DNA of 24,000 bases from Methanobrevibacter arboriphilus. Lineage in GTDB: Archaea; Methanobacteriota; Methanobacteria; Methanobacteriales; Methanobacteriaceae. Made by a program: the position numbers and the translations under genes. The DNA lies in assembly GCF_019669925.1 (NCBI RefSeq), contig NZ_AP019779.1, forward strand, positions 1,877,292 through 1,901,291, written 5' to 3'. Positions within the stretch are counted from its first letter, which is position 1, and every line of letters begins with the position of its first letter. Shown in pieces: positions 2,893 through 12,204 of this stretch. The notes under the pieces were generated by a model that worked only from the letters and a program-made list of their open reading frames with translations, was not told where the DNA came from and ran no database searches.

Positions 2893-4047
2893 ATGTTATT
2901 TCATAAAAAGATAGACGAAATTTCAGAAAAGGATATAAATAATATAGTTGGAAATGAAGTTTTTGAAGATAAATATTTGGAGTATAAATCTGAGTATAAT
3001 CATTCAGATAAAATAAAATTCAAGTTAATAAAAACTGTTTGTGGATTTGCAAACTCAGATGGTGGTTTATTAATCTATGGGATAACAGAAGACGAAAACC
3101 ATACTCCTTCAGAAGTTACAGGGGTTAAATTAGATAGTAGTTTTGATAATGAAGTTAATTGGATTGAAAGTATAGTTTCTTCAAATTCGGAGCCAAGTAT
3201 TTCGAATATAGAAATAAGACAAATAGAAATTAAAGAATCTGATAGGATTATCTTGATTATTAAAGTTCCAAAAAGCTGGAACCTTCCACATAGAGTTGTG
3301 CAAGGAAAACCTAATAAAAAAAGTGAATCTAAAAGAGAATTTTTTGTCAGACGACAATCGAAAACAGTTCCATTGGAGATTGACGAATTGAAAAATCTAT
3401 TTAGTTTTGCAGGAGATGTTCATGATAAGATTCATTTATTTAGAGATAATCAAATAGCTAAAGTCGTTTCTGACAATGTATTTATATGCACTGACTCTCA
3501 AATAGCATTACTCATTGATTTAATTCCTTTTAACAGTTTTAATAATGTTGAATTTGATATTAGAGAAACAAAAGATCAAGTTCCAACTTTTGGCCAAGGA
3601 GATTCTAGATATGGGGAATATAATTTTGAGGGAGTTATAAGTAAATCAATGATTCACTATTCTCAAATCTATAGAAATGGGATTATTGAAGGTTTAGTGT
3701 CTTCGAACAGATTTTTAAAGGTTCCTCTTAAAGAATTTTTTGAATATACACTAAATTTTATAAATGATTCTATAAAATTATATGAAAAGATAAATTTTTC
3801 ACCACCCTTCGCTATTTTTATATCACTTATAAATATCGAAAATCGTAATCTTGAAACTTTGTTTTTTGATAAGGAAGCTATTAGTGATAGAAATGTTTTA
3901 CCTGGTCATGAAATCATGATTGAAAAGTATTTATCTAAAAATGAGATAGCATTTAAACTCAAAACTGTTTTTGATTCATTTTATAATCATTTTGGGATTG
4001 AAAATTCTCCTTTTTACGATGAAGAAGGCAATTGGAAGAAAAAATGA
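2893..4047 (+). CDS. AlbA_2 (Schlafen-like, 'divergent AAA'/putative DNA-binding) domain protein with an uncharacterised C-terminal half
   Basis: The N-terminal ~180 aa match AlbA_2 hallmarks in order: EDKYLEYKSE, then VCGFANSDGGLLIYGITED, then IILIIKVPKSWNLPHRV, then EFFVRRQSKTVPLEIDELKNLF. The ATG at 2893 is preferred over the TTG at 2878 because GAGGA lies about 9 nt upstream of it. Confidence 0.8.
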   Translation: MLFHKKIDEISEKDINNIVGNEVFEDKYLEYKSEYNHSDKIKFKLIKTVCGFANSDGGLLIYGITEDENHTPSEVTGVKLDSSFDNEVNWIESIVSSNSEPSISNIEIRQIEIKESDRIILIIKVPKSWNLPHRVVQGKPNKKSESKREFFVRRQSKTVPLEIDELKNLFSFAGDVHDKIHLFRDNQIAKVVSDNVFICTDSQIALLIDLIPFNSFNNVEFDIRETKDQVPTFGQGDSRYGEYNFEGVISKSMIHYSQIYRNGIIEGLVSSNRFLKVPLKEFFEYTLNFINDSIKLYEKINFSPPFAIFISLINIENRNLETLFFDKEAISDRNVLPGHEIMIEKYLSKNEIAFKLKTVFDSFYNHFGIENSPFYDEEGNWKKK

Positions 4048-4070
4048 ATTTTTATAATGCATAATTAGAA

Positions 4071-4078
4071 TTTATATA
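4071..4078 (+). promoter_or_regulatory. Candidate TATA box (TTTATATA) upstream of the HEPN-protein gene
   Basis: An exact TTTATATA is centred about 31 nt upstream of the ATG at 4106. This implies a very short leader or none. It is only a sequence match. Confidence 0.3.
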
Positions 4079-4105
4079 AACTTTTAGTTGTTTTCAGTGG
4101 ATACA

Positions 4106-5659
4106 ATGTCATTAAAAAATCTTAAAATCCCCCATATTCCATATTTAAATTTTAATCAGGATAAAGATAAAAATATCATTTTTCAAGCTATCTCAGGTGT
4201 TATTAAATCCACCTCAGAAGATAAAAAAGATGATATATTTGATATTAAATTAGTGATTTCAAATGATATAAAGATATATTTTTCTATTAGTCTTTTTAGT
4301 ACTTATTTTTTTAAAAAATATGGCGAATATGAAGAAGATAAAAAAAATATTGTAGATGGAACTCCTGATATAAGTTTTTATTCAAACATCTATTTTGTTG
4401 ACTCAAAAAACCGATATGATGTGAAAATAAAAAATTTTTTCGTAGATAGTTACAAATTTAACTTTTCAGGAGATTATTCAACACTCAAAGCATATATAGT
4501 GGGAGTCTGTGAAGAAATAGTTGTTTATGATAATGATTTTTCAGATAATGAAACTGTCGAATCATGGGAAATAATAGAAAATACTATTTTTAGTCAACCC
4601 AAAGGCTTTGGATTTAAAAATATCCAGATTGAAAAACTATTCTTAAAAGGTTTGGACACTAATGAATTTAATAGTGTCAATTTGAATAAAAAATGTATTA
4701 ACCAGTTTAAATATGCTACAGGATACTTTTATTATAAAGATAAGTTTAAAAATTTGAATAAATGGGATAAACGATTAGATAATATTTATTATTTGTTAGC
4801 TTTCTATAATTCTGATTTTAATAATCGTAGAATTACTTTAATTGAAGGAGAAAACAAAACAAAAATGATTTTCAGAGATAGGTATTTAGGAGAATCAAAT
4901 GGCAAAAATATATTTGAAAAAAATGGATATAATTTATTTAATCTTATTGATTCTACTTATTCTCCTCTAACTAATTTAGAACTTAAAGAGATAGATTTTA
5001 AGTTACTTATTGAATATTTTATTTATATAGAAAATGCATATAATATTAAAAATGAAATTCTGTTCTCTTCAATATTTTTAGAAATATTAAAAAATCAATA
5101 TAAAACAAACAATGATTCAACATTGTTAGATAATCTTAAAAATGCACTAAATGTGCATGAATTAAATTCTAACAAATTGTTTGAAATTCTTCATGCTAAT
5201 TATGGAATTGATTTTAAAAAGATAGAGAAAAATATTTTAAATGAATACAAGAATTCTAAAGATAGAAAAAATATTCTTAAAATGTTTGCTATGTTTAAAT
5301 CTAATTATTTCTTAAATAAATTAAAACTATATAGAAACAATATAGTGCATACTGGAAAAATGAATATTTCTGTGGAGGAAAATATTGAAATCATTGATGA
5401 AATTTCTAAATATTTGAAAAAAAGTTTCAATGGTAATAAAAACGAAGAAATTTTAGATAAAATTTCTAATAGTCTTAATGATGAGATAAATTCTGGAAAT
5501 TTTAGAGAGGATTTTGATTTGCAACAAAATTTTCTTAAAGAATTTATAATAATTATATTATTAGCTATTTTTGATGTGAATTGCAACATAAAAAGAAACA
5601 CTATAATGGGTAATAACATTAGTAGAAATTCTATAGACTATCTCAATCAATTTAAGTAA
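4106..5659 (+). CDS. Large protein with a C-terminal HEPN-type Rx4H motif (ApeA-like architecture); putative RNase effector
   Basis: YRNNIVH is encoded at 5333-5350 (R-N-x3-H) in a helical C-terminal region, preceded by a ~400-aa unassigned N-terminal region. The ATG at 4106 is preferred over the TTG at 4088. The gene starts 58 nt after the AlbA_2 gene on the same strand. Confidence 0.7.
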   Translation: MSLKNLKIPHIPYLNFNQDKDKNIIFQAISGVIKSTSEDKKDDIFDIKLVISNDIKIYFSISLFSTYFFKKYGEYEEDKKNIVDGTPDISFYSNIYFVDSKNRYDVKIKNFFVDSYKFNFSGDYSTLKAYIVGVCEEIVVYDNDFSDNETVESWEIIENTIFSQPKGFGFKNIQIEKLFLKGLDTNEFNSVNLNKKCINQFKYATGYFYYKDKFKNLNKWDKRLDNIYYLLAFYNSDFNNRRITLIEGENKTKMIFRDRYLGESNGKNIFEKNGYNLFNLIDSTYSPLTNLELKEIDFKLLIEYFIYIENAYNIKNEILFSSIFLEILKNQYKTNNDSTLLDNLKNALNVHELNSNKLFEILHANYGIDFKKIEKNILNEYKNSKDRKNILKMFAMFKSNYFLNKLKLYRNNIVHTGKMNISVEENIEIIDEISKYLKKSFNGNKNEEILDKISNSLNDEINSGNFREDFDLQQNFLKEFIIIILLAIFDVNCNIKRNTIMGNNISRNSIDYLNQFK

Positions 5660-5851: not shown

Positions 5852-7000
5852 CTAATTATTACTACAATAGTTGTTATTATCCATTTCTAAAATAGAATTT
5901 TTCATATCTATCATGAAAAATTCAAGTGTTTGCTGATAAATTATACTGTCCATACTAGGTTTATATGTCAATAGCCAAGTTGTGGCTTGACAAATAGAAA
6001 TAGCTGTGTTTTGGATTGTTTCTCCAAGCCCATAGTTACTCGCCCCCCAATGTAAAATTTTTTCCTGTTTTTCACTAGGTAAACTTGTATTATATAATCC
6101 TCTTGAAAGGCCATGAATTGAAGCTGATGAAAGATTATAATAGGGTATCAGATGGTCAACATTAACAAATTTAGCCAAAGCTTTAAAATATGGTTTACAA
6201 ATTTCTTTAGGAATCCAACCCCAATCATAATCAAATTCTTTACCATATTTTTCAATTAATTCATCCCTTTGCTCTTTAATTTTTTCAAAATTATCAGTAT
6301 TTGGGATGTAATCATCATCAGGATGTAATCTTTCATAATAATTTTGATATTCTTTAATGTCTTTGTATGTTCTAATAATTTCATGTTCCATATATCTTTT
6401 TGTAACATAAAACTCATTTTTTGATAAGAAAGCTGAAATGACAGATAATTCATATAAAGTTCTCCATCTTGAATTAGCACCATCCCCATAACCTGTCTTT
6501 AAAAGAGTTAATATCTCATTAGATACACGGAGTGCTCTTGCATGAAGTTGCATTAAAACATTTAATTTACAATCATCACTATCTTTATTATAAATATCTC
6601 TAGAATGAAGATTGACTGACTCGAAGCACATAATAATCAAGACTTCAAGGTTACCAAGTATTTCTCCCCATTGGTCATGCACCAAATTTTCAAATTCATT
6701 TCTTTCATCAGCATATTCTTCTAGCATTGAATTCATATTTTCTTTTATAAATTTTACTAACTCATTAGAACCTGTAGATGTTGCATCTGTTAGTAATTTG
6801 GGGAGTTTGTCATTAATAAATTCATCATTAGGAAAATATCCTTTAACACTGATATATTTTTCTACAATAAATGATAAAATTTTTTCTCCAGTATTAGGCT
6901 TTTCAATCCCATAATTATTTATTTTCCTTTTTTTATAGTTTGTATTAATTATTATTAGATGTGAATGTTTAATGGAATGCTGTTTTCTATTGTATCTCAT
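5852..7000 (-). CDS. Hypothetical helical protein, 382 aa, possibly DUF5677-like
   Basis: Long ORF with non-repetitive composition. The segment LHARALRVSNEILTLLKTGYGDGANSRWRTLYELSVISAFL resembles, from memory, the conserved core of DUF5677-type proteins. That assignment is unverified. Confidence 0.65.
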   Translation of the reverse strand: MRYNRKQHSIKHSHLIIINTNYKKRKINNYGIEKPNTGEKILSFIVEKYISVKGYFPNDEFINDKLPKLLTDATSTGSNELVKFIKENMNSMLEEYADERNEFENLVHDQWGEILGNLEVLIIMCFESVNLHSRDIYNKDSDDCKLNVLMQLHARALRVSNEILTLLKTGYGDGANSRWRTLYELSVISAFLSKNEFYVTKRYMEHEIIRTYKDIKEYQNYYERLHPDDDYIPNTDNFEKIKEQRDELIEKYGKEFDYDWGWIPKEICKPYFKALAKFVNVDHLIPYYNLSSASIHGLSRGLYNTSLPSEKQEKILHWGASNYGLGETIQNTAISICQATTWLLTYKPSMDSIIYQQTLEFFMIDMKNSILEMDNNNYCSNN

Positions 7001-7070: not shown

Positions 7071-7908
7071 AGCTTGCTGTATGCATACAGATAAACACCT
7101 TGGTAGTATGTTCCTGTGATATTGTATGGTTTTGGTTTATTGGTATTGTTATCGCTGTCTGCATACAGATCAACACCATATGTTCCTGTGATATTGTATG
7201 GTTTTGGTTATATGTGGCGTTGTTATCGCTGTATGCAGCCAGAGCAACACCATAGTCTGTTCCTGTGATATCGTTAGGCTTTGGTTATATGTGGTATTTT
7301 TGCTGCTGTATGCAGCCAGATAAACACCTCGTGATGTTCCTGTGATGCTGCATTGTCTTGTTTATATGATGTGTTGTTATCGCTGTCTGCATACAGAGAA
7401 ACACCATTGCCTGATGTTCCTGTGAATTGTTGTGTAATCTTGGTTATATGTGGTATTTTTGCTGCTGGATGCAGACAGAGAAACACCATCGTAGTATGTT
7501 CCTGTGTTTGTTATTTTTGGCTTTGGTTTATTGGTATTGTTATCGCTGTATGCATACAGCTCAACACCATAGTCTGTTCCTGTGGATTGTTGTGTAGTTT
7601 CGGTTATATGTGGTATTTTTGCTGCTGGATGCAGACAGATAAACACCATATGTTCCTGTGATGTTGTTGTGTAGTCTTGTTTATATGGGATGTTGTTATC
7701 GCTGTATGCATACAGATAAACACCATCGTATGTTCCTGTGATATTTTATTGGCTTTGGTTTATATGTGGCGTTGTTGCTGCTGGATGCATCCAGATAAAC
7801 ACCTAGTGATGTTCCTGTGAATTGTTGTATTGTCTTGTTTATATGGTTGTGTTGTTATCGCTTTATGCATCCAGATAAACACCATTGTATGTTCCTGTGA
7901 TGTTGTTG
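7071..7908 (-). pseudogene. Decayed, inverted copy of the adhesin-like gene's NNITGT...GVYL.AYSSNNTNITFA repeat cassette (about 11 units of ~72-80 bp)
   Basis: The reverse complement matches 9346-10143. Exact inverted matches are 7219-7269 with 9511-9561 (51 bp), 7832-7861 with 9551-9580 (30 bp) and 7785-7820 with 9593-9628 (36 bp). Only short, frame-hopping ORFs are present (6997..7179, 7274..7489, 7377..7649). Confidence 0.85.
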
Positions 7909-8560
7909 AGCTATTTTTTTGGGTTTTTTTTTCTTTTTTTATTAGTTGTTTTTTTATTGTTTGGGTGGTTTGTTGTTCTTTGTTTGGTGTTTTAGTTGTT
8001 TTGGTTGTTTTTTGTTTTTTTATTAGTTGTTTTTTGCTTTGTAGATGTTATATTGTTCTTTGTTTTAGTGTTTTGTTTTATTTTTATTCTTTTTTATTAT
8101 TATTAATCGTTTTTGTTCTTTTGTGGTGGTTTATTTTTGTTGTAGTTTTTTTGAATATTTTTTTGTTTTATATATGGTTGTGCTTGATAACAGCTATTTT
8201 GTTTTTGATGATATTGTAATTTTATTTTTTTTATTTTTGTTTTTTTATATTCTGTATGTTTATGTTGTTTAGCTGTTATTTTTTAGATTTTCTTATTATT
8301 TTTTTATTTTATATTACTTGTTTTTTATTTTTTTTAGTGTTTATTTTTTATTTAGCTTTATTATATTATTATAATAGGTTTGTATTGTTTTAAAGCTTTT
8401 ATATTTGTTATATTTCAGTTTAGAGTTTTTTATTTATTTTTTTTAGTTGTTATTTTTTTATTTTGTTTTTTGTTCTTATTTTTGTCTTATTCTTGTTTTT
8501 CTTCTTTTTTTATTTTTTAAACAGCTATTTCACTATTTTTGCGGGGGGGGGGGTGGCTAT
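7909..8560. repeat. Low-complexity tract made almost entirely of T and G on the plus strand
   Basis: By direct reading there are dozens of T5-T10 runs interspersed with G/GT, and very few A or C. TTTTTATTAGTTGTTTTTT recurs near 7945 and near 8015. Confidence 0.8.
8543..8553. repeat. Homopolymeric G11 tract upstream of the adhesin-like gene
   Basis: gcGGGGGGGGGGGtgg read directly from the sequence. It lies 163 nt upstream of the ATG at 8716. Confidence 0.9.
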
Positions 8561-8715: not shown

Positions 8716-9573
8716 ATGTTTAAGAATAAGTTTTTTGTTTCGTTTGTGTTAGTACTAGCTTTTTTATTTTTGTTTAGTTTGTCTAGTGTTAGTGCAGGTG
8801 AGTATGATTTTACTAGTAGTAATACTACTGAACAGTTTCAGAATGTTATTGATACTGATGTGGGGGATGAGTTGATTATTAATTTGGATGATGATGGTAA
8901 TTATTCTCTGGGTCAGATTAATGTGACTCGTAATGCTACTATAGTTGGTAAGAATCATAATGTTAATATTACTGGATCAGGGTCTGGTGTTTTGTTTAAT
9001 ATTACGAATAGTAGTGTTCGTATTATTAATTTAACTATCACTGGTTATACTAGTGCTATTGTTGGTAATAGTAGTGATTTAACGGTTACTGGTAATAATA
9101 TTACTACTAGTGGTATTAGTATTAATATTAGTAGTAGTGGTGATAATTTAACGAATATAATTATTGAGGATAATGTTATTGTTTCTTCTGTTAGTAATAT
9201 TTATTATGGTGCTGTTTTTGTTAATGGTAATGGTATGGCTATTTCTTTTGTTTCTTTTATTAATAATAGTATACGTGGTAATGGTACTAGTAATTCTAAT
9301 GGTGTTCGTATTAATTCTAAGGGTATTAATAATTTGACTTTTGATGGAAACAACATCACAGGAACATACGATGGTGTTTATCTGGATGCATCCAGCAGCA
9401 ACAACACCAATATAACCTTTGCCAACAACAACATCACAGGAACATACAATGGTGTTTATCTGGCTGCATACAGCAGCAACAACACCAATATAACCTTTGC
9501 CAACAACAACATCACAGGAACAGACTATGGTGTTGCTCTGGCTGCATACAGCGATAACAACACAACCATATAA
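8716..9573 (+). CDS. Asn/Thr-rich adhesin-like surface protein, N-terminal part (signal peptide plus parallel beta-helix repeats), ending at an in-frame TAA
   Basis: AGGAGTGA SD upstream of the ATG. The signal peptide is MFKNKFFVSFVLVLAFLFLFSLSSVSA|GE. The body carries 26-27-aa NNITG-type coils. The stop at 9571-9573 is in the same frame as the next ORF. Confidence 0.8.
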   Translation: MFKNKFFVSFVLVLAFLFLFSLSSVSAGEYDFTSSNTTEQFQNVIDTDVGDELIINLDDDGNYSLGQINVTRNATIVGKNHNVNITGSGSGVLFNITNSSVRIINLTITGYTSAIVGNSSDLTVTGNNITTSGISINISSSGDNLTNIIIEDNVIVSSVSNIYYGAVFVNGNGMAISFVSFINNSIRGNGTSNSNGVRINSKGINNLTFDGNNITGTYDGVYLDASSSNNTNITFANNNITGTYNGVYLAAYSSNNTNITFANNNITGTDYGVALAAYSDNNTTI

Positions 9574-9759
9574 ACAAGACTACACAACAACATCACAGGA
9601 ACATCACTAGGTGTTTATCTGGATGCATACAATAGTAATAACTCACAATTTACATTCGACCACAACAATATCACAGGAACAATACGCGATGGTGTTTATC
9701 TGGAGGCATACAATAGTAATAACTCACAATTTACATTCGACCACAACAATATCACAGGA

Positions 9760-12204
9760 ATGAATTATGGTGGTGTTTATCTGAGGGCATACAATAGTAA
9801 TAACTCACAATTTACATTCGACCACAACAACATCACAGGAACATCAAGCTGTGGTGTTTATCTGGAGGCATACAATAGTAGCAATACCAATATATCCTTT
9901 GCCAACAATAACATCACAGGAACAGACTATGGTGTTTATCTGTATGCATACATGAGTAACAATACCAATGTATCTTTCATTGGTAACAATATCTTAGGAG
10001 CACGTGGTGTTACTCTGTATGCAGACAGCAGCAACAACACCAATATAACCTTCGCCAACAACAACATCACAGGAACATCATACTATGGTGTTTTTCTGAG
10101 GGTATACAGCAGCAACAACACCAATATAACCTTCGCCAACAACAACATTACTGGTGTTAGTTATGGTGTGAATTTTTATTCTAATAATGGTAATATTAGT
10201 AGTGTTATGTTTTTGAATAATACTATAAATGCTACTGGTGGTAGTGGTTTTTATTTTGTTAATGGTGGTAGTGGTGCTATTAATGTGACTGATTTTATTA
10301 TCAAGGGTAATAATATCTTTGCTACTAATGCTGGTTTGAATTTCAGTGGTCTTAAGGTTGGTTCTCTTGTTAATGTTACTGTTGAGTATAATAGGATTAT
10401 TGCTCCTGTTGGTGTGAATATTACTGGTTTTTATAATGGTAGTAGTTTTGATTTTAATTGGTGGGGTGTTAATGATATAACTGGTAAAACTTTAGGTGTT
10501 GATACGGTTAATCATTTTATTTTGAATGTTACTAATCTTAATAGTTTGGATAATCTTCATCCTGGCGATGATGTTAGTTTTGCGTTTTTAGTGCTGAATA
10601 CTACTCTTGTTAATGATGGTGTTGAGTATTTGCCTTATTTTGTGGTGAATGGTACTTATAACAATCAGACTTTTTATGTTAATAATTCTAGTAATTTTAC
10701 TGGTAATTGGACTGTGTCTAACGTTGGAGATAATGTTTTTGTTGCGACTTTGGATAGTCAGGATGTGGATTTCAGATTTTCTGAAAGTAAGTTGGATACT
10801 AATTCTACTATTAGTGTGGATGATGTTCATGTTGGTACTATTGCTAGTATTAGTGGTCAGTTGGATAATTATGCTGGTAATGGTTCTGATTTGTTGAATG
10901 TTACTGTGGATGGTAACCTTTATGAAAATGTTGTTATTAATAGTACTGGTGGTTGGAATTTAACTTATTTGACTAATCGTACAGGAAACATCACAGTAAC
11001 TGTTGATTATTCTGGTAATGATAATTATACAAGTTTTAGTAATAGTACAAGTTTTGATGTGCTTAAAAATAGTACTAACTCTACTATTGATGTTTTTGGT
11101 GATTTTAGGGTTGGTGAAAATATTACTATTAGTGGTATTTTGGTTGATGTTAATAGTGATCCTATAGATAATGCTCAAATGACAATTATTATTGGTAATG
11201 AGTCTTTTAATGTGACAACTAATAGTAGTGGTGTTTGGAGTCTTGTTTATGCTCCGCTTCATGGTAGTGAGTTCTTTACTTGGGTTAACTGGGCTGGTAA
11301 TGATAATTACACAGGTTTTAATAATAGTACTAGTTTTAATGTTAGTAAGTTAGCTAGTAATTCTAGTATTGTTATTCCTGTTGATATTAAGGTTAATGAA
11401 ACAGTTTTAATTTCTGGTGTTTTATCTGATGAGAATAATAATACAATATCTGGTGCTAATTTAGAAGTTATTATTGATGGTGAAACCTTTAATGTGATTA
11501 CTGATTCTGTTGGTTTTTGGGGTTTAAATTATACTTCTGAACATTCTGGTGTTTTTAATTTATCTCTCTTTTATCAGGGTGATAGTCGGTATGTTGGTTT
11601 TGTTGAAAATAAGGTTTTTAATGTTAGTAAGTTAGCTACTACTTCTAGTATTAATATTCCAAGTAATGTTAAAGTAGGAAAACCATTTAGTGTTTCTGGT
11701 GTTTTGACTAGTGGTGGTAAACCATTGGCTAATGCTAGTGTTCTTGTTATTGTTGATGGTAAAACTTATAAGGTTACTACTAATGGTCTTGGTGTTTGGA
11801 AACTGTCTTATACTCCGAAAATAGCTGGAAAATCTACTATTAAGGTTTATTTTGCTGGTAATAATGATTATATTGGTTTTAATGTTAGTAAGACTTTTAA
11901 AATTGCCGGGAAAGTTAATATAAGGATTGTTAAGATTTCTAAGCTTGTTAAAGTGGGTAAGTATAATGGTTTTAATCTTTATAGTAAAGTTTACACTATT
12001 AAAAATGTGGGATCTGCTTTAGGTTCTAAGGATTATGTTAAGTATTTTAAGAATTGGTATTTGGAGAAATTGTCTAAGACTAGTAAAATTGTTAAGTATC
12101 AGTTTAGTGCTAAGTCTAGGGTTTTAAAGGTTCAAGTTAAGAATTTAGGTGTTGGAAAACAAGTTAAGTTGAAAATACTAGTAACACATAGAAAAAGACT
12201 ATAA
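9760..12204 (+). CDS. Asn/Thr-rich adhesin-like surface protein, C-terminal part (beta-helix repeats, four ~93-aa Ig-like repeats, K-rich tail)
   Basis: Same frame as 8716..9573. Codons 9574-9759 are open and continue the repeat (TRLHNNITGTSLGVYLDAYNSNNSQFTFDHNNITG...). The four tandem modules span about 10780-11910, for example SKLASNSSIVIPVDIKVNETVLISGVL...FNV. Together the two parts form one 8716..12204 gene of 1161 sense codons with a single internal TAA. Confidence 0.8.
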   Translation: MNYGGVYLRAYNSNNSQFTFDHNNITGTSSCGVYLEAYNSSNTNISFANNNITGTDYGVYLYAYMSNNTNVSFIGNNILGARGVTLYADSSNNTNITFANNNITGTSYYGVFLRVYSSNNTNITFANNNITGVSYGVNFYSNNGNISSVMFLNNTINATGGSGFYFVNGGSGAINVTDFIIKGNNIFATNAGLNFSGLKVGSLVNVTVEYNRIIAPVGVNITGFYNGSSFDFNWWGVNDITGKTLGVDTVNHFILNVTNLNSLDNLHPGDDVSFAFLVLNTTLVNDGVEYLPYFVVNGTYNNQTFYVNNSSNFTGNWTVSNVGDNVFVATLDSQDVDFRFSESKLDTNSTISVDDVHVGTIASISGQLDNYAGNGSDLLNVTVDGNLYENVVINSTGGWNLTYLTNRTGNITVTVDYSGNDNYTSFSNSTSFDVLKNSTNSTIDVFGDFRVGENITISGILVDVNSDPIDNAQMTIIIGNESFNVTTNSSGVWSLVYAPLHGSEFFTWVNWAGNDNYTGFNNSTSFNVSKLASNSSIVIPVDIKVNETVLISGVLSDENNNTISGANLEVIIDGETFNVITDSVGFWGLNYTSEHSGVFNLSLFYQGDSRYVGFVENKVFNVSKLATTSSINIPSNVKVGKPFSVSGVLTSGGKPLANASVLVIVDGKTYKVTTNGLGVWKLSYTPKIAGKSTIKVYFAGNNDYIGFNVSKTFKIAGKVNIRIVKISKLVKVGKYNGFNLYSKVYTIKNVGSALGSKDYVKYFKNWYLEKLSKTSKIVKYQFSAKSRVLKVQVKNLGVGKQVKLKILVTHRKRL

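Follow-up and report, generated by a model that had tools for sequence, protein, structure and literature searches.

Two groups of proteins offer the closest described parallels to the locus considered here. ApeA is a single-protein abortive-infection tRNA anticodon nuclease whose HEPN domain is interrupted by insertions, one of them between H3 and H4 (bioRxiv 10.64898/2026.01.26.701840). This single-gene anti-phage system carries the Pfam domains ApeA_NTD1 (PF18862) and HEPN_Apea (PF18739) and includes Ec1-Ec4ApeA. ApeA-NTD1 has been described as a domain of ~300 amino acids (aa), consisting mostly of beta strands and poorly conserved, and HEPN domains are also found in non-defence proteins (PMC3710099). 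Among prokaryotic Schlafens, the CRISPR-associated Schlafen CbCash (PDB 9ylu) is an experimentally shown tRNase; the same study places a large group of Schlafens with unknown C-terminal domains, 'Cluster 4', near restriction-modification (R-M) systems, and raises the question of what triggers them (PMC13462974). In this work we analysed a stretch of 24,000 nucleotides (nt) from Methanobrevibacter arboriphilus (contig NZ_AP019779.1, positions 1,877,292 to 1,901,291 of the forward strand), hereafter the window, in which a gene for a Schlafen/AlbA_2 protein (gene 1) is followed on the same strand by a gene for a protein with a predicted HEPN domain (gene 2). A preliminary description of this DNA had proposed that the AlbA_2 protein acts as sensor or regulator of the HEPN protein. 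We favour a different reading, to which we assign a probability of about 0.7: the two genes are independent, self-contained candidates for single-gene RNase immunity that happen to stand side by side in a defence island. To our knowledge, very few antiviral systems of methanogens have been characterised.

The features on which the argument rests are as follows.

2893..4047, plus strand: gene 1, a 384-aa prokaryotic Schlafen-family protein (open reading frame with ATG at 2893 and TGA at 4045-4047; full-length homologues)

2965..3375, plus strand: Schlafen/AlbA_2 nuclease domain of gene 1, residues 25-161 (Pfam PF04326; putative triad E25, E30, K32)

3400..4044, plus strand: C-terminal domain of gene 1, about residues 170-384, conserved across the family; presumed sensor or regulatory module

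4048-4105, plus strand: spacer of 58 nt between the gene 1 stop and the gene 2 ATG

4106..5659, plus strand: gene 2, a 517-aa protein of a small unannotated family (open reading frame; 35 homologues; alignment A1; AlphaFold2 model)

4106..4885, plus strand: N-terminal beta-rich domain (about residues 1-160) and alpha/beta middle region (about residues 170-260) of gene 2, from DSSP of the model; presumed sensor module

4904..5605, plus strand: HEPN-type domain of gene 2, about residues 267-500, distantly ApeA-like (hhalign against ApeA; sub-threshold Pfam matches in relatives)

5333..5350, plus strand: RNNIVH, putative HEPN catalytic motif of gene 2 (R410, N411 and H415, then G417)

Judged by its sequence, gene 1 is a Schlafen/AlbA_2 protein with an intact putative E-E/D-K active site. 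Residues 25-161 score 67.3 bits with the Pfam SLFN_AlbA_2 model (E=2.2e-18; cut-off 25.3 bits), and the translation contains all of the motifs by which the preliminary description had recognised the domain (EDKYLEYK, GFANSDGGLLIYG, VPKSWNLPH and FVRRQS). The start codon is backed by homologues that begin at the same position, and a Shine-Dalgarno-like GAGGA lies 8 nt ahead of it. When a profile of the family was compared with the PDB, it found CbCash (9ylu) with E=9e-11 and also SLFN8, 14, 11, 5 and 12; in the alignment to 9ylu, residues E17, D22 and K24 of CbCash correspond to E25, E30 and K32 of gene 1. Within the family alignment K32 is invariant, E25 is conserved in at least 90% of sequences, and only E or D occurs at position 30. 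Because gene 1 keeps the Schlafen catalytic triad, the role of an independent effector nuclease is more likely for it than that of a sensor.

The match to CbCash ends at residue 161, and the C-terminal ~220 aa find no match in Pfam, NCBIfam or PADLOC and no credible match among PDB sequences, in agreement with the earlier statement that a C-terminal half of ~200 aa could not be assigned. Full-length homologues of ~390 aa are alike over both halves, and the C-terminal domain has its own invariant residues (Q258, R261, G263, E266, P305, K357 and N365), as in a QIxRNGIIE motif. The family is represented by 91 loci in species-representative genomes from many bacterial and archaeal phyla, and by 6 loci in viral contigs. 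With CbCash and other prokaryotic Schlafens, gene 1 shares the nuclease domain with its aligned E-[E/D]-K triad and the combination of that domain with a separate presumed sensor domain; it fits the 'Cluster 4' Schlafens (PMC13462974) by description only, some of its relatives being located near R-M genes. The C-terminal domain of gene 1 has no recognisable relative, and since it contains no Csx15/CARF-like cyclic-oligoadenylate sensor domain and no type III CRISPR genes lie nearby, gene 1 is not a Cash. On these grounds gene 1 belongs with prokaryotic Schlafens that are widespread and uncharacterised, keep the triad intact and have an unassigned C-terminal domain.

For gene 2, a phmmer search of 1.84 billion representative proteins returned 35 homologues, mostly 26-36% identical and many of them full length (~490-550 aa), and word-indexed homologue searches with the protein or its alignment recovered only the gene 2 protein itself. 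Homologues align from residue 1-5 onward, which favours ATG 4106 over TTG 4088 and upholds the earlier placement of a 517-aa protein 58 nt downstream of gene 1. In alignment A1, which comprises 28 family sequences ~23-32% identical to the window protein, the only columns conserved at 90% or more are R410, N411, H415 and G417 (R410-H415 of the 517-aa protein are R416-H421 in the numbering of the 523-aa open reading frame). As RN-x3-H(-x-G) provides the sole near-invariant columns, RNNIVH is no chance match and shows the pattern expected of a HEPN RNase, as had been proposed at the outset; the motif is not lost among homologues. The Glu of the FLEILKN helix is conserved in all relatives that have that region. 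Of 313 genomes from the same archaeal family, 12 contain a member; the five same-genus genomes contain none, and a method that reaches close relatives only did not find gene 2 in viral contigs.

An AlphaFold2 model of gene 2 built with the alignment has a predicted local distance difference test score (pLDDT) of 87 and a predicted template modelling score (pTM) of 0.86; the single-sequence model has a pLDDT of 35. Beta strands occupy residues 24-158, an alpha/beta region 179-257, and residues 276-488 are all helical, so that the helical C-terminal region noted previously reappears in the model with a beta-rich N-terminal half ahead of it. The RNNIVH motif is placed at the end of helix 387-416, and is followed by a helical insertion of ~50 aa (417-469), which separates the catalytic helix from the last core helix and is absent in a shorter sub-branch of the family.

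The C-terminal domain of gene 2 is, on the strength of profile comparisons, most probably a HEPN domain whose closest recognisable relative is that of the ApeA type. We used 13 canonical ApeA proteins of the same archaeal family as reference; the two of them scanned with Pfam gave ApeA_NTD1 and HEPN_Apea matches of up to 191 and 119 bits. Aligned by hhalign to this set, A1 gave P=7.7e-5 (score 46, 171 columns), pairing residues 267-497 of gene 2 with the ApeA HEPN region in a register that brings the conserved Glu, RNxxxH and the last helix into alignment, and a repeat with the tool's own alignment gave P=1e-4. None of 22 controls (an unrelated family, a reversed ApeA alignment and 20 column-shuffled ApeA alignments) scored above 19, and a comparison of ApeA with the RiboL-PSP HEPN proteins of the same organisms, taken as a yardstick, detected no similarity (P=0.62). 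Members of the shorter sub-branch stay below the Pfam cut-offs over the motif region: HEPN_Apea scores reach 16-20.5 bits where 24.4 are required, and HEPN_RiboL-PSP scores ~20 bits where 28.4 are required.

Gene 2 resembles ApeA in several respects: a single polypeptide of ~450-580 aa ends in a HEPN domain that is preceded by a large N-terminal module; RNxxxH lies on the catalytic helix, and an earlier helix has a conserved Glu; a stretch is inserted after the catalytic helix and before the last core helix; profile-profile similarity extends over ~267-497 (P ~1e-4); and the family is located among R-M and other defence-island genes. It differs in that it matches neither HEPN_Apea nor ApeA_NTD1 nor any PADLOC model, and so is not an ApeA in the strict sense; in that the N-terminal halves have no detectable similarity; in its beta-rich front half, E. 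coli ApeA being described as predominantly helical; and in that its family is found in one archaeal family only and its RNase role is putative. Of the earlier designation of gene 2 as ApeA-like, layout and HEPN similarity stand, and membership by the family's own models does not. HEPN_Apea exceeds the Pfam cut-off in 17 of the 329 genomes searched in the phylum. As a separate observation, one genome (G029:C1:1112978-1115851, locus L035) carries two canonical ApeA genes on opposite strands, separated by ~2 kb, with HEPN_Apea scores of 118 and 123 bits.

Other HEPN nucleases are less close. Several relatives of gene 2 match HEPN_RiboL-PSP (PF18735) below threshold over the RNxxxH region; unlike gene 2, the archaeal proteins that score best with this model (7 aligned, 3 above the Pfam cut-off) are only ~210-245 aa long and have no large N-terminal module. 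With the PrrC/RloC-type anticodon nucleases, which are linked to type I R-M, gene 2 has in common the presence, in one relative (L024), of a HEPN-type RNase gene beside a type I R-M system; unlike them, it has no ABC-ATPase domain, and the copy in the window has no R-M neighbour.

If the two proteins act as these comparisons suggest, each would be sufficient on its own. The N-terminal AlbA_2 domain of gene 1, with a metal-dependent E-E/D-K site, would probably cut tRNA, by analogy with Cash and mammalian SLFN11/13, and its C-terminal domain may sense an infection cue or drive oligomerisation, thereby triggering cleavage. Gene 2 may be a single-polypeptide abortive-infection RNase in the style of ApeA, in which the beta-rich N-terminal domain and the middle module would sense infection and the HEPN domains would dimerise to form a composite R-N-H active site for metal-free RNA cleavage; by the same analogy the target could be tRNA anticodon loops, with a halt in translation as the outcome. 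Schlafen cleavage yields 3'-OH ends, HEPN cleavage 2',3'-cyclic phosphate ends. An antiviral role would be the common purpose of both. We also considered a toxin-antitoxin pair and rejected it: the surroundings offer neither a small partner gene nor an MNT (nucleotidyltransferase antitoxin) gene, and no neighbour is conserved.

The genomic neighbourhoods of the two families bear directly on whether they belong together. Around the 10 best gene 2 loci, with flanks of up to 8 kb on each side as the contigs allow, no gene 1 relative or other AlbA_2 gene occurs within 8 kb (0/10). When the 10 genomes were searched in full with Pfam AlbA_2, eight had no such domain at all and the other two had copies on different contigs. 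In the opposite direction, neither the gene 2 family hidden Markov model (HMM) nor the ApeA HMM has a match in the flanks, up to 6 kb each, of the gene 1 loci (0/80; 80 kept of 91). Clustering of the genes around gene 1 loci brought out only type I R-M subunits as recurrent neighbours, at 3-5 of 77 loci. Among 137 immediate neighbours scanned with Pfam no family occurs more than three times, the leading ones being HsdS (the type I R-M specificity subunit), HNH, Mrr and methylases, and no HEPN family is among those matched by at least two of the 137. Some gene 1 relatives lie inside type I R-M operons or beside a ThaI R-M pair. The closest homologue (66% identity, from a metagenome; L001:302-3875) is found 33 nt downstream of a gene for a 486-aa TIR/SEFIR protein and upstream of a KAP NTPase gene, and a same-genus genome has a 28%-identical family member near a KAP NTPase with no gene 2 relative. 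The neighbours of the gene 2 family are also consistently defence genes: a type I R-M operon; type I-B cas genes with an OLD-like TOPRIM protein; a KAP NTPase with an AbiJ-like protein; a ResIII (type III restriction)/Mrr helicase with a methylase; and a large SEC-C-motif protein. At the second of these loci (L027:6076-9656) the gene 2 relative is followed after 12 nt by a gene for a 635-aa protein with an OLD-like TOPRIM domain, and is divergent to a type I-B-like cas6-cas8-cas7-cas5-cas3 operon, its cas genes being named by sequence reading.

One sub-branch of the gene 2 family has a neighbour of its own. In three genomes (L031:4276-9596, L032:4242-9563 and L033:7647-14164) a divergent sub-branch gene lies directly 3′ of a gene for a 1231-1249-aa protein, on the same strand and with a gap of ~0-40 nt; the sole Pfam match of the large protein is an N-terminal SEC-C motif (L032 copy scanned), and L033 contains two tandem HEPN-family paralogues. 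For this sub-branch, the large protein and the gene 2 relative could be a real two-gene system.

These results leave little room for the proposal with which we began, namely a dedicated two-gene system with the Schlafen/AlbA_2 protein as nucleic-acid sensor or as regulator and the HEPN protein as effector, or its variant in which one protein restrains the other in the manner of a toxin and its antitoxin. What speaks for it is the arrangement in the window itself, with two genes of RNA-related immunity domains on one strand at a spacing of 58 nt. Against this stand the counts of 0/10 and 0/80 and the lack of AlbA_2 from most gene 2 genomes, the different neighbours of the 66%-identical gene 1 homologue, the complete triad of gene 1, as would suit an effector, and a 5.7-point gap in G+C content between the genes (27.3% for gene 1 vs 21.6% for gene 2). 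The spacer also contains a T5 run (4049-4053) directly after the gene 1 stop and a TATA-like TTTATATA at 4071-4078, ~28 nt ahead of the gene 2 ATG. The TATA box suggested in the preliminary description is present, although both elements are common in window DNA and the TTTATATA octamer occurs 24 times in this AT-rich window vs 14 expected, so that it carries little weight as promoter evidence by itself. A recurrent association of the two families, whose absence the preliminary description had named among the points that would refute its proposal, appeared in no sample tested. We therefore consider the sensor-effector pairing very unlikely, and conclude that two RNase-type immunity genes standing next to each other in a defence island are no evidence for a two-component system.

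The nature of gene 2 allows two further alternatives. It could be a very divergent true ApeA, in which ApeA_NTD1 and HEPN_Apea have eroded past recognition by sequence, rather than a different N-terminal module joined to an ApeA-like HEPN domain. Its domains are about as large as those of a canonical archaeal ApeA of 464 aa, in which NTD1 spans 6-278 and HEPN 307-444, the hhalign match starts at the NTD1/HEPN junction, and canonical ApeA genes are present in the same archaeal family. Since ApeA-NTD1 was originally described as mostly beta, and the N-terminal half of gene 2 is beta-rich, complete erosion of a true ApeA stays a live alternative. It has to contend with the N-terminal comparison, in which hhalign detects no similarity between the two halves (P=0.72) and ApeA_NTD1 finds no match at E<=1 in any of the 28 family members, and with the negative outcome of the HMM-to-sequence searches; on balance we regard it as possible but doubtful. 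That gene 2 is no active defence RNase at all, and serves instead in housekeeping RNA processing or non-catalytic binding, would suit the lack of a direct Pfam or PADLOC match and the occurrence of HEPN domains outside defence (PMC3710099). It sits poorly with a family in which the catalytic R, N and H are the best-conserved residues, whose distribution is patchy and whose neighbours are those listed above, and we judge it improbable.

Several observations weigh against our own reading of two independent RNase candidates. The same strand and short spacing make co-transcription, and with it a lineage-specific cooperation, conceivable, and the context samples, made up of representative genomes and short metagenome contigs, are a non-exhaustive survey. 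No HEPN model matches gene 2 directly: the protein has no match in Pfam, PADLOC (E<=0.1), NCBIfam or PDB sequences. HMM-to-sequence searches between the gene 2 family and ApeA were negative in both directions. No HEPN structure is among the best 50 Foldseek matches listed for the gene 2 model, in PDB or BFVD, and the fold assignment is consequently founded on sequence profiles together with the model's secondary structure. Finally, in a six-frame search one relative (L029:8601-8993; G274:C1:9685-10077) reached 33.0 bits for HEPN_RiboL-PSP, above the cut-off for that family.

With respect to the last point, hmmscan of the same L029 open reading frame lists only HEPN_Apea, at 20.5 bits. Assignment of gene 2 to HEPN_RiboL-PSP was rejected, as the 33-bit match was not reproduced and hhalign aligned only 26 columns around the motif (P=0.002). 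The A1 profile found no matches among PDB sequences, and canonical archaeal ApeA, searched as protein and as profile, likewise found none in that copy of the PDB, which may therefore contain no ApeA structures.

The same Foldseek searches of PDB and BFVD bear on the front half of gene 2. The best matches are weak and consist mostly of Hcp, the tube protein of the type VI secretion system, and of phage tail-tube or related tail proteins; they fall on residues 1-160 (4106-4585), with E values of 3e-3 to 1e-1 and target-normalised TM scores of ~0.4-0.6. Weak as they are, their consistency suggests that the modelled N-terminus is a tube-like beta-barrel. One could go further and suppose that the family comprises a new kind of HEPN abortive-infection proteins, whose tail-tube/Hcp-like barrel serves as a sensor of, or decoy for, viral tail-tube or tail-assembly proteins; we offer this as a highly speculative idea that is very probably wrong, derived as it is from these weak matches. 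Were it true, recognition of a virion component by the barrel would be coupled directly to RNA cleavage, and it would concern one methanogen family only, apparently the Methanobacteriaceae. Independently of this idea, gene 2 represents a small HEPN family, remotely ApeA-like and with an unrecognised N-terminal module, that PADLOC, Pfam and NCBIfam models miss entirely, and it is an archaeal candidate for a single-protein abortive-infection RNase in the style of ApeA.

On the methanogen chromosome, the block around the two genes is a variable defence island. With a G+C content of ~20-28% over most of its length, the window is very AT-rich, and from ~12.7 kb on it contains core methanogen genes (CofD, GTP cyclohydrolase III, glutamyl-tRNA reductase and a sirohaem-synthase-like protein), which identify it as chromosomal DNA of a methanogenic archaeon; the host genome is a single contig of 2.39 Mb. 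No cas genes were found among the longer open reading frames of the window or in the 17 kb upstream, an Rfam scan of the window gave no match, and the minus-strand cassette at 1-2460 has no domain match in Pfam, PADLOC or NCBIfam. Between gene 2 and the core genes lie the following features.

5852-7000, minus strand: DUF5677 protein of 382 aa (Pfam E=2e-28), converging on gene 2

7071-7930: degenerate tandem repeats of 77-81 nt that encode an NNITGT-type beta-helix repeat when read on the minus strand

8716-12204: adhesin-like genes carrying the NNITGT-type beta-helix repeat

Since the repeats at 7071-7930 share the NNITGT repeat with the adhesin-like genes, they are a decayed inverted copy. 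On the other side, an AbiTii gene (Pfam E=9e-40; L050:15261-16124, genome G000:C1) is located ~1 kb before the window start. Further up from it stands a gene for an AAA_14/DUF4143 ATPase; the region of these two genes forms the left part of the defence island, and past the ATPase surface-polysaccharide genes start.

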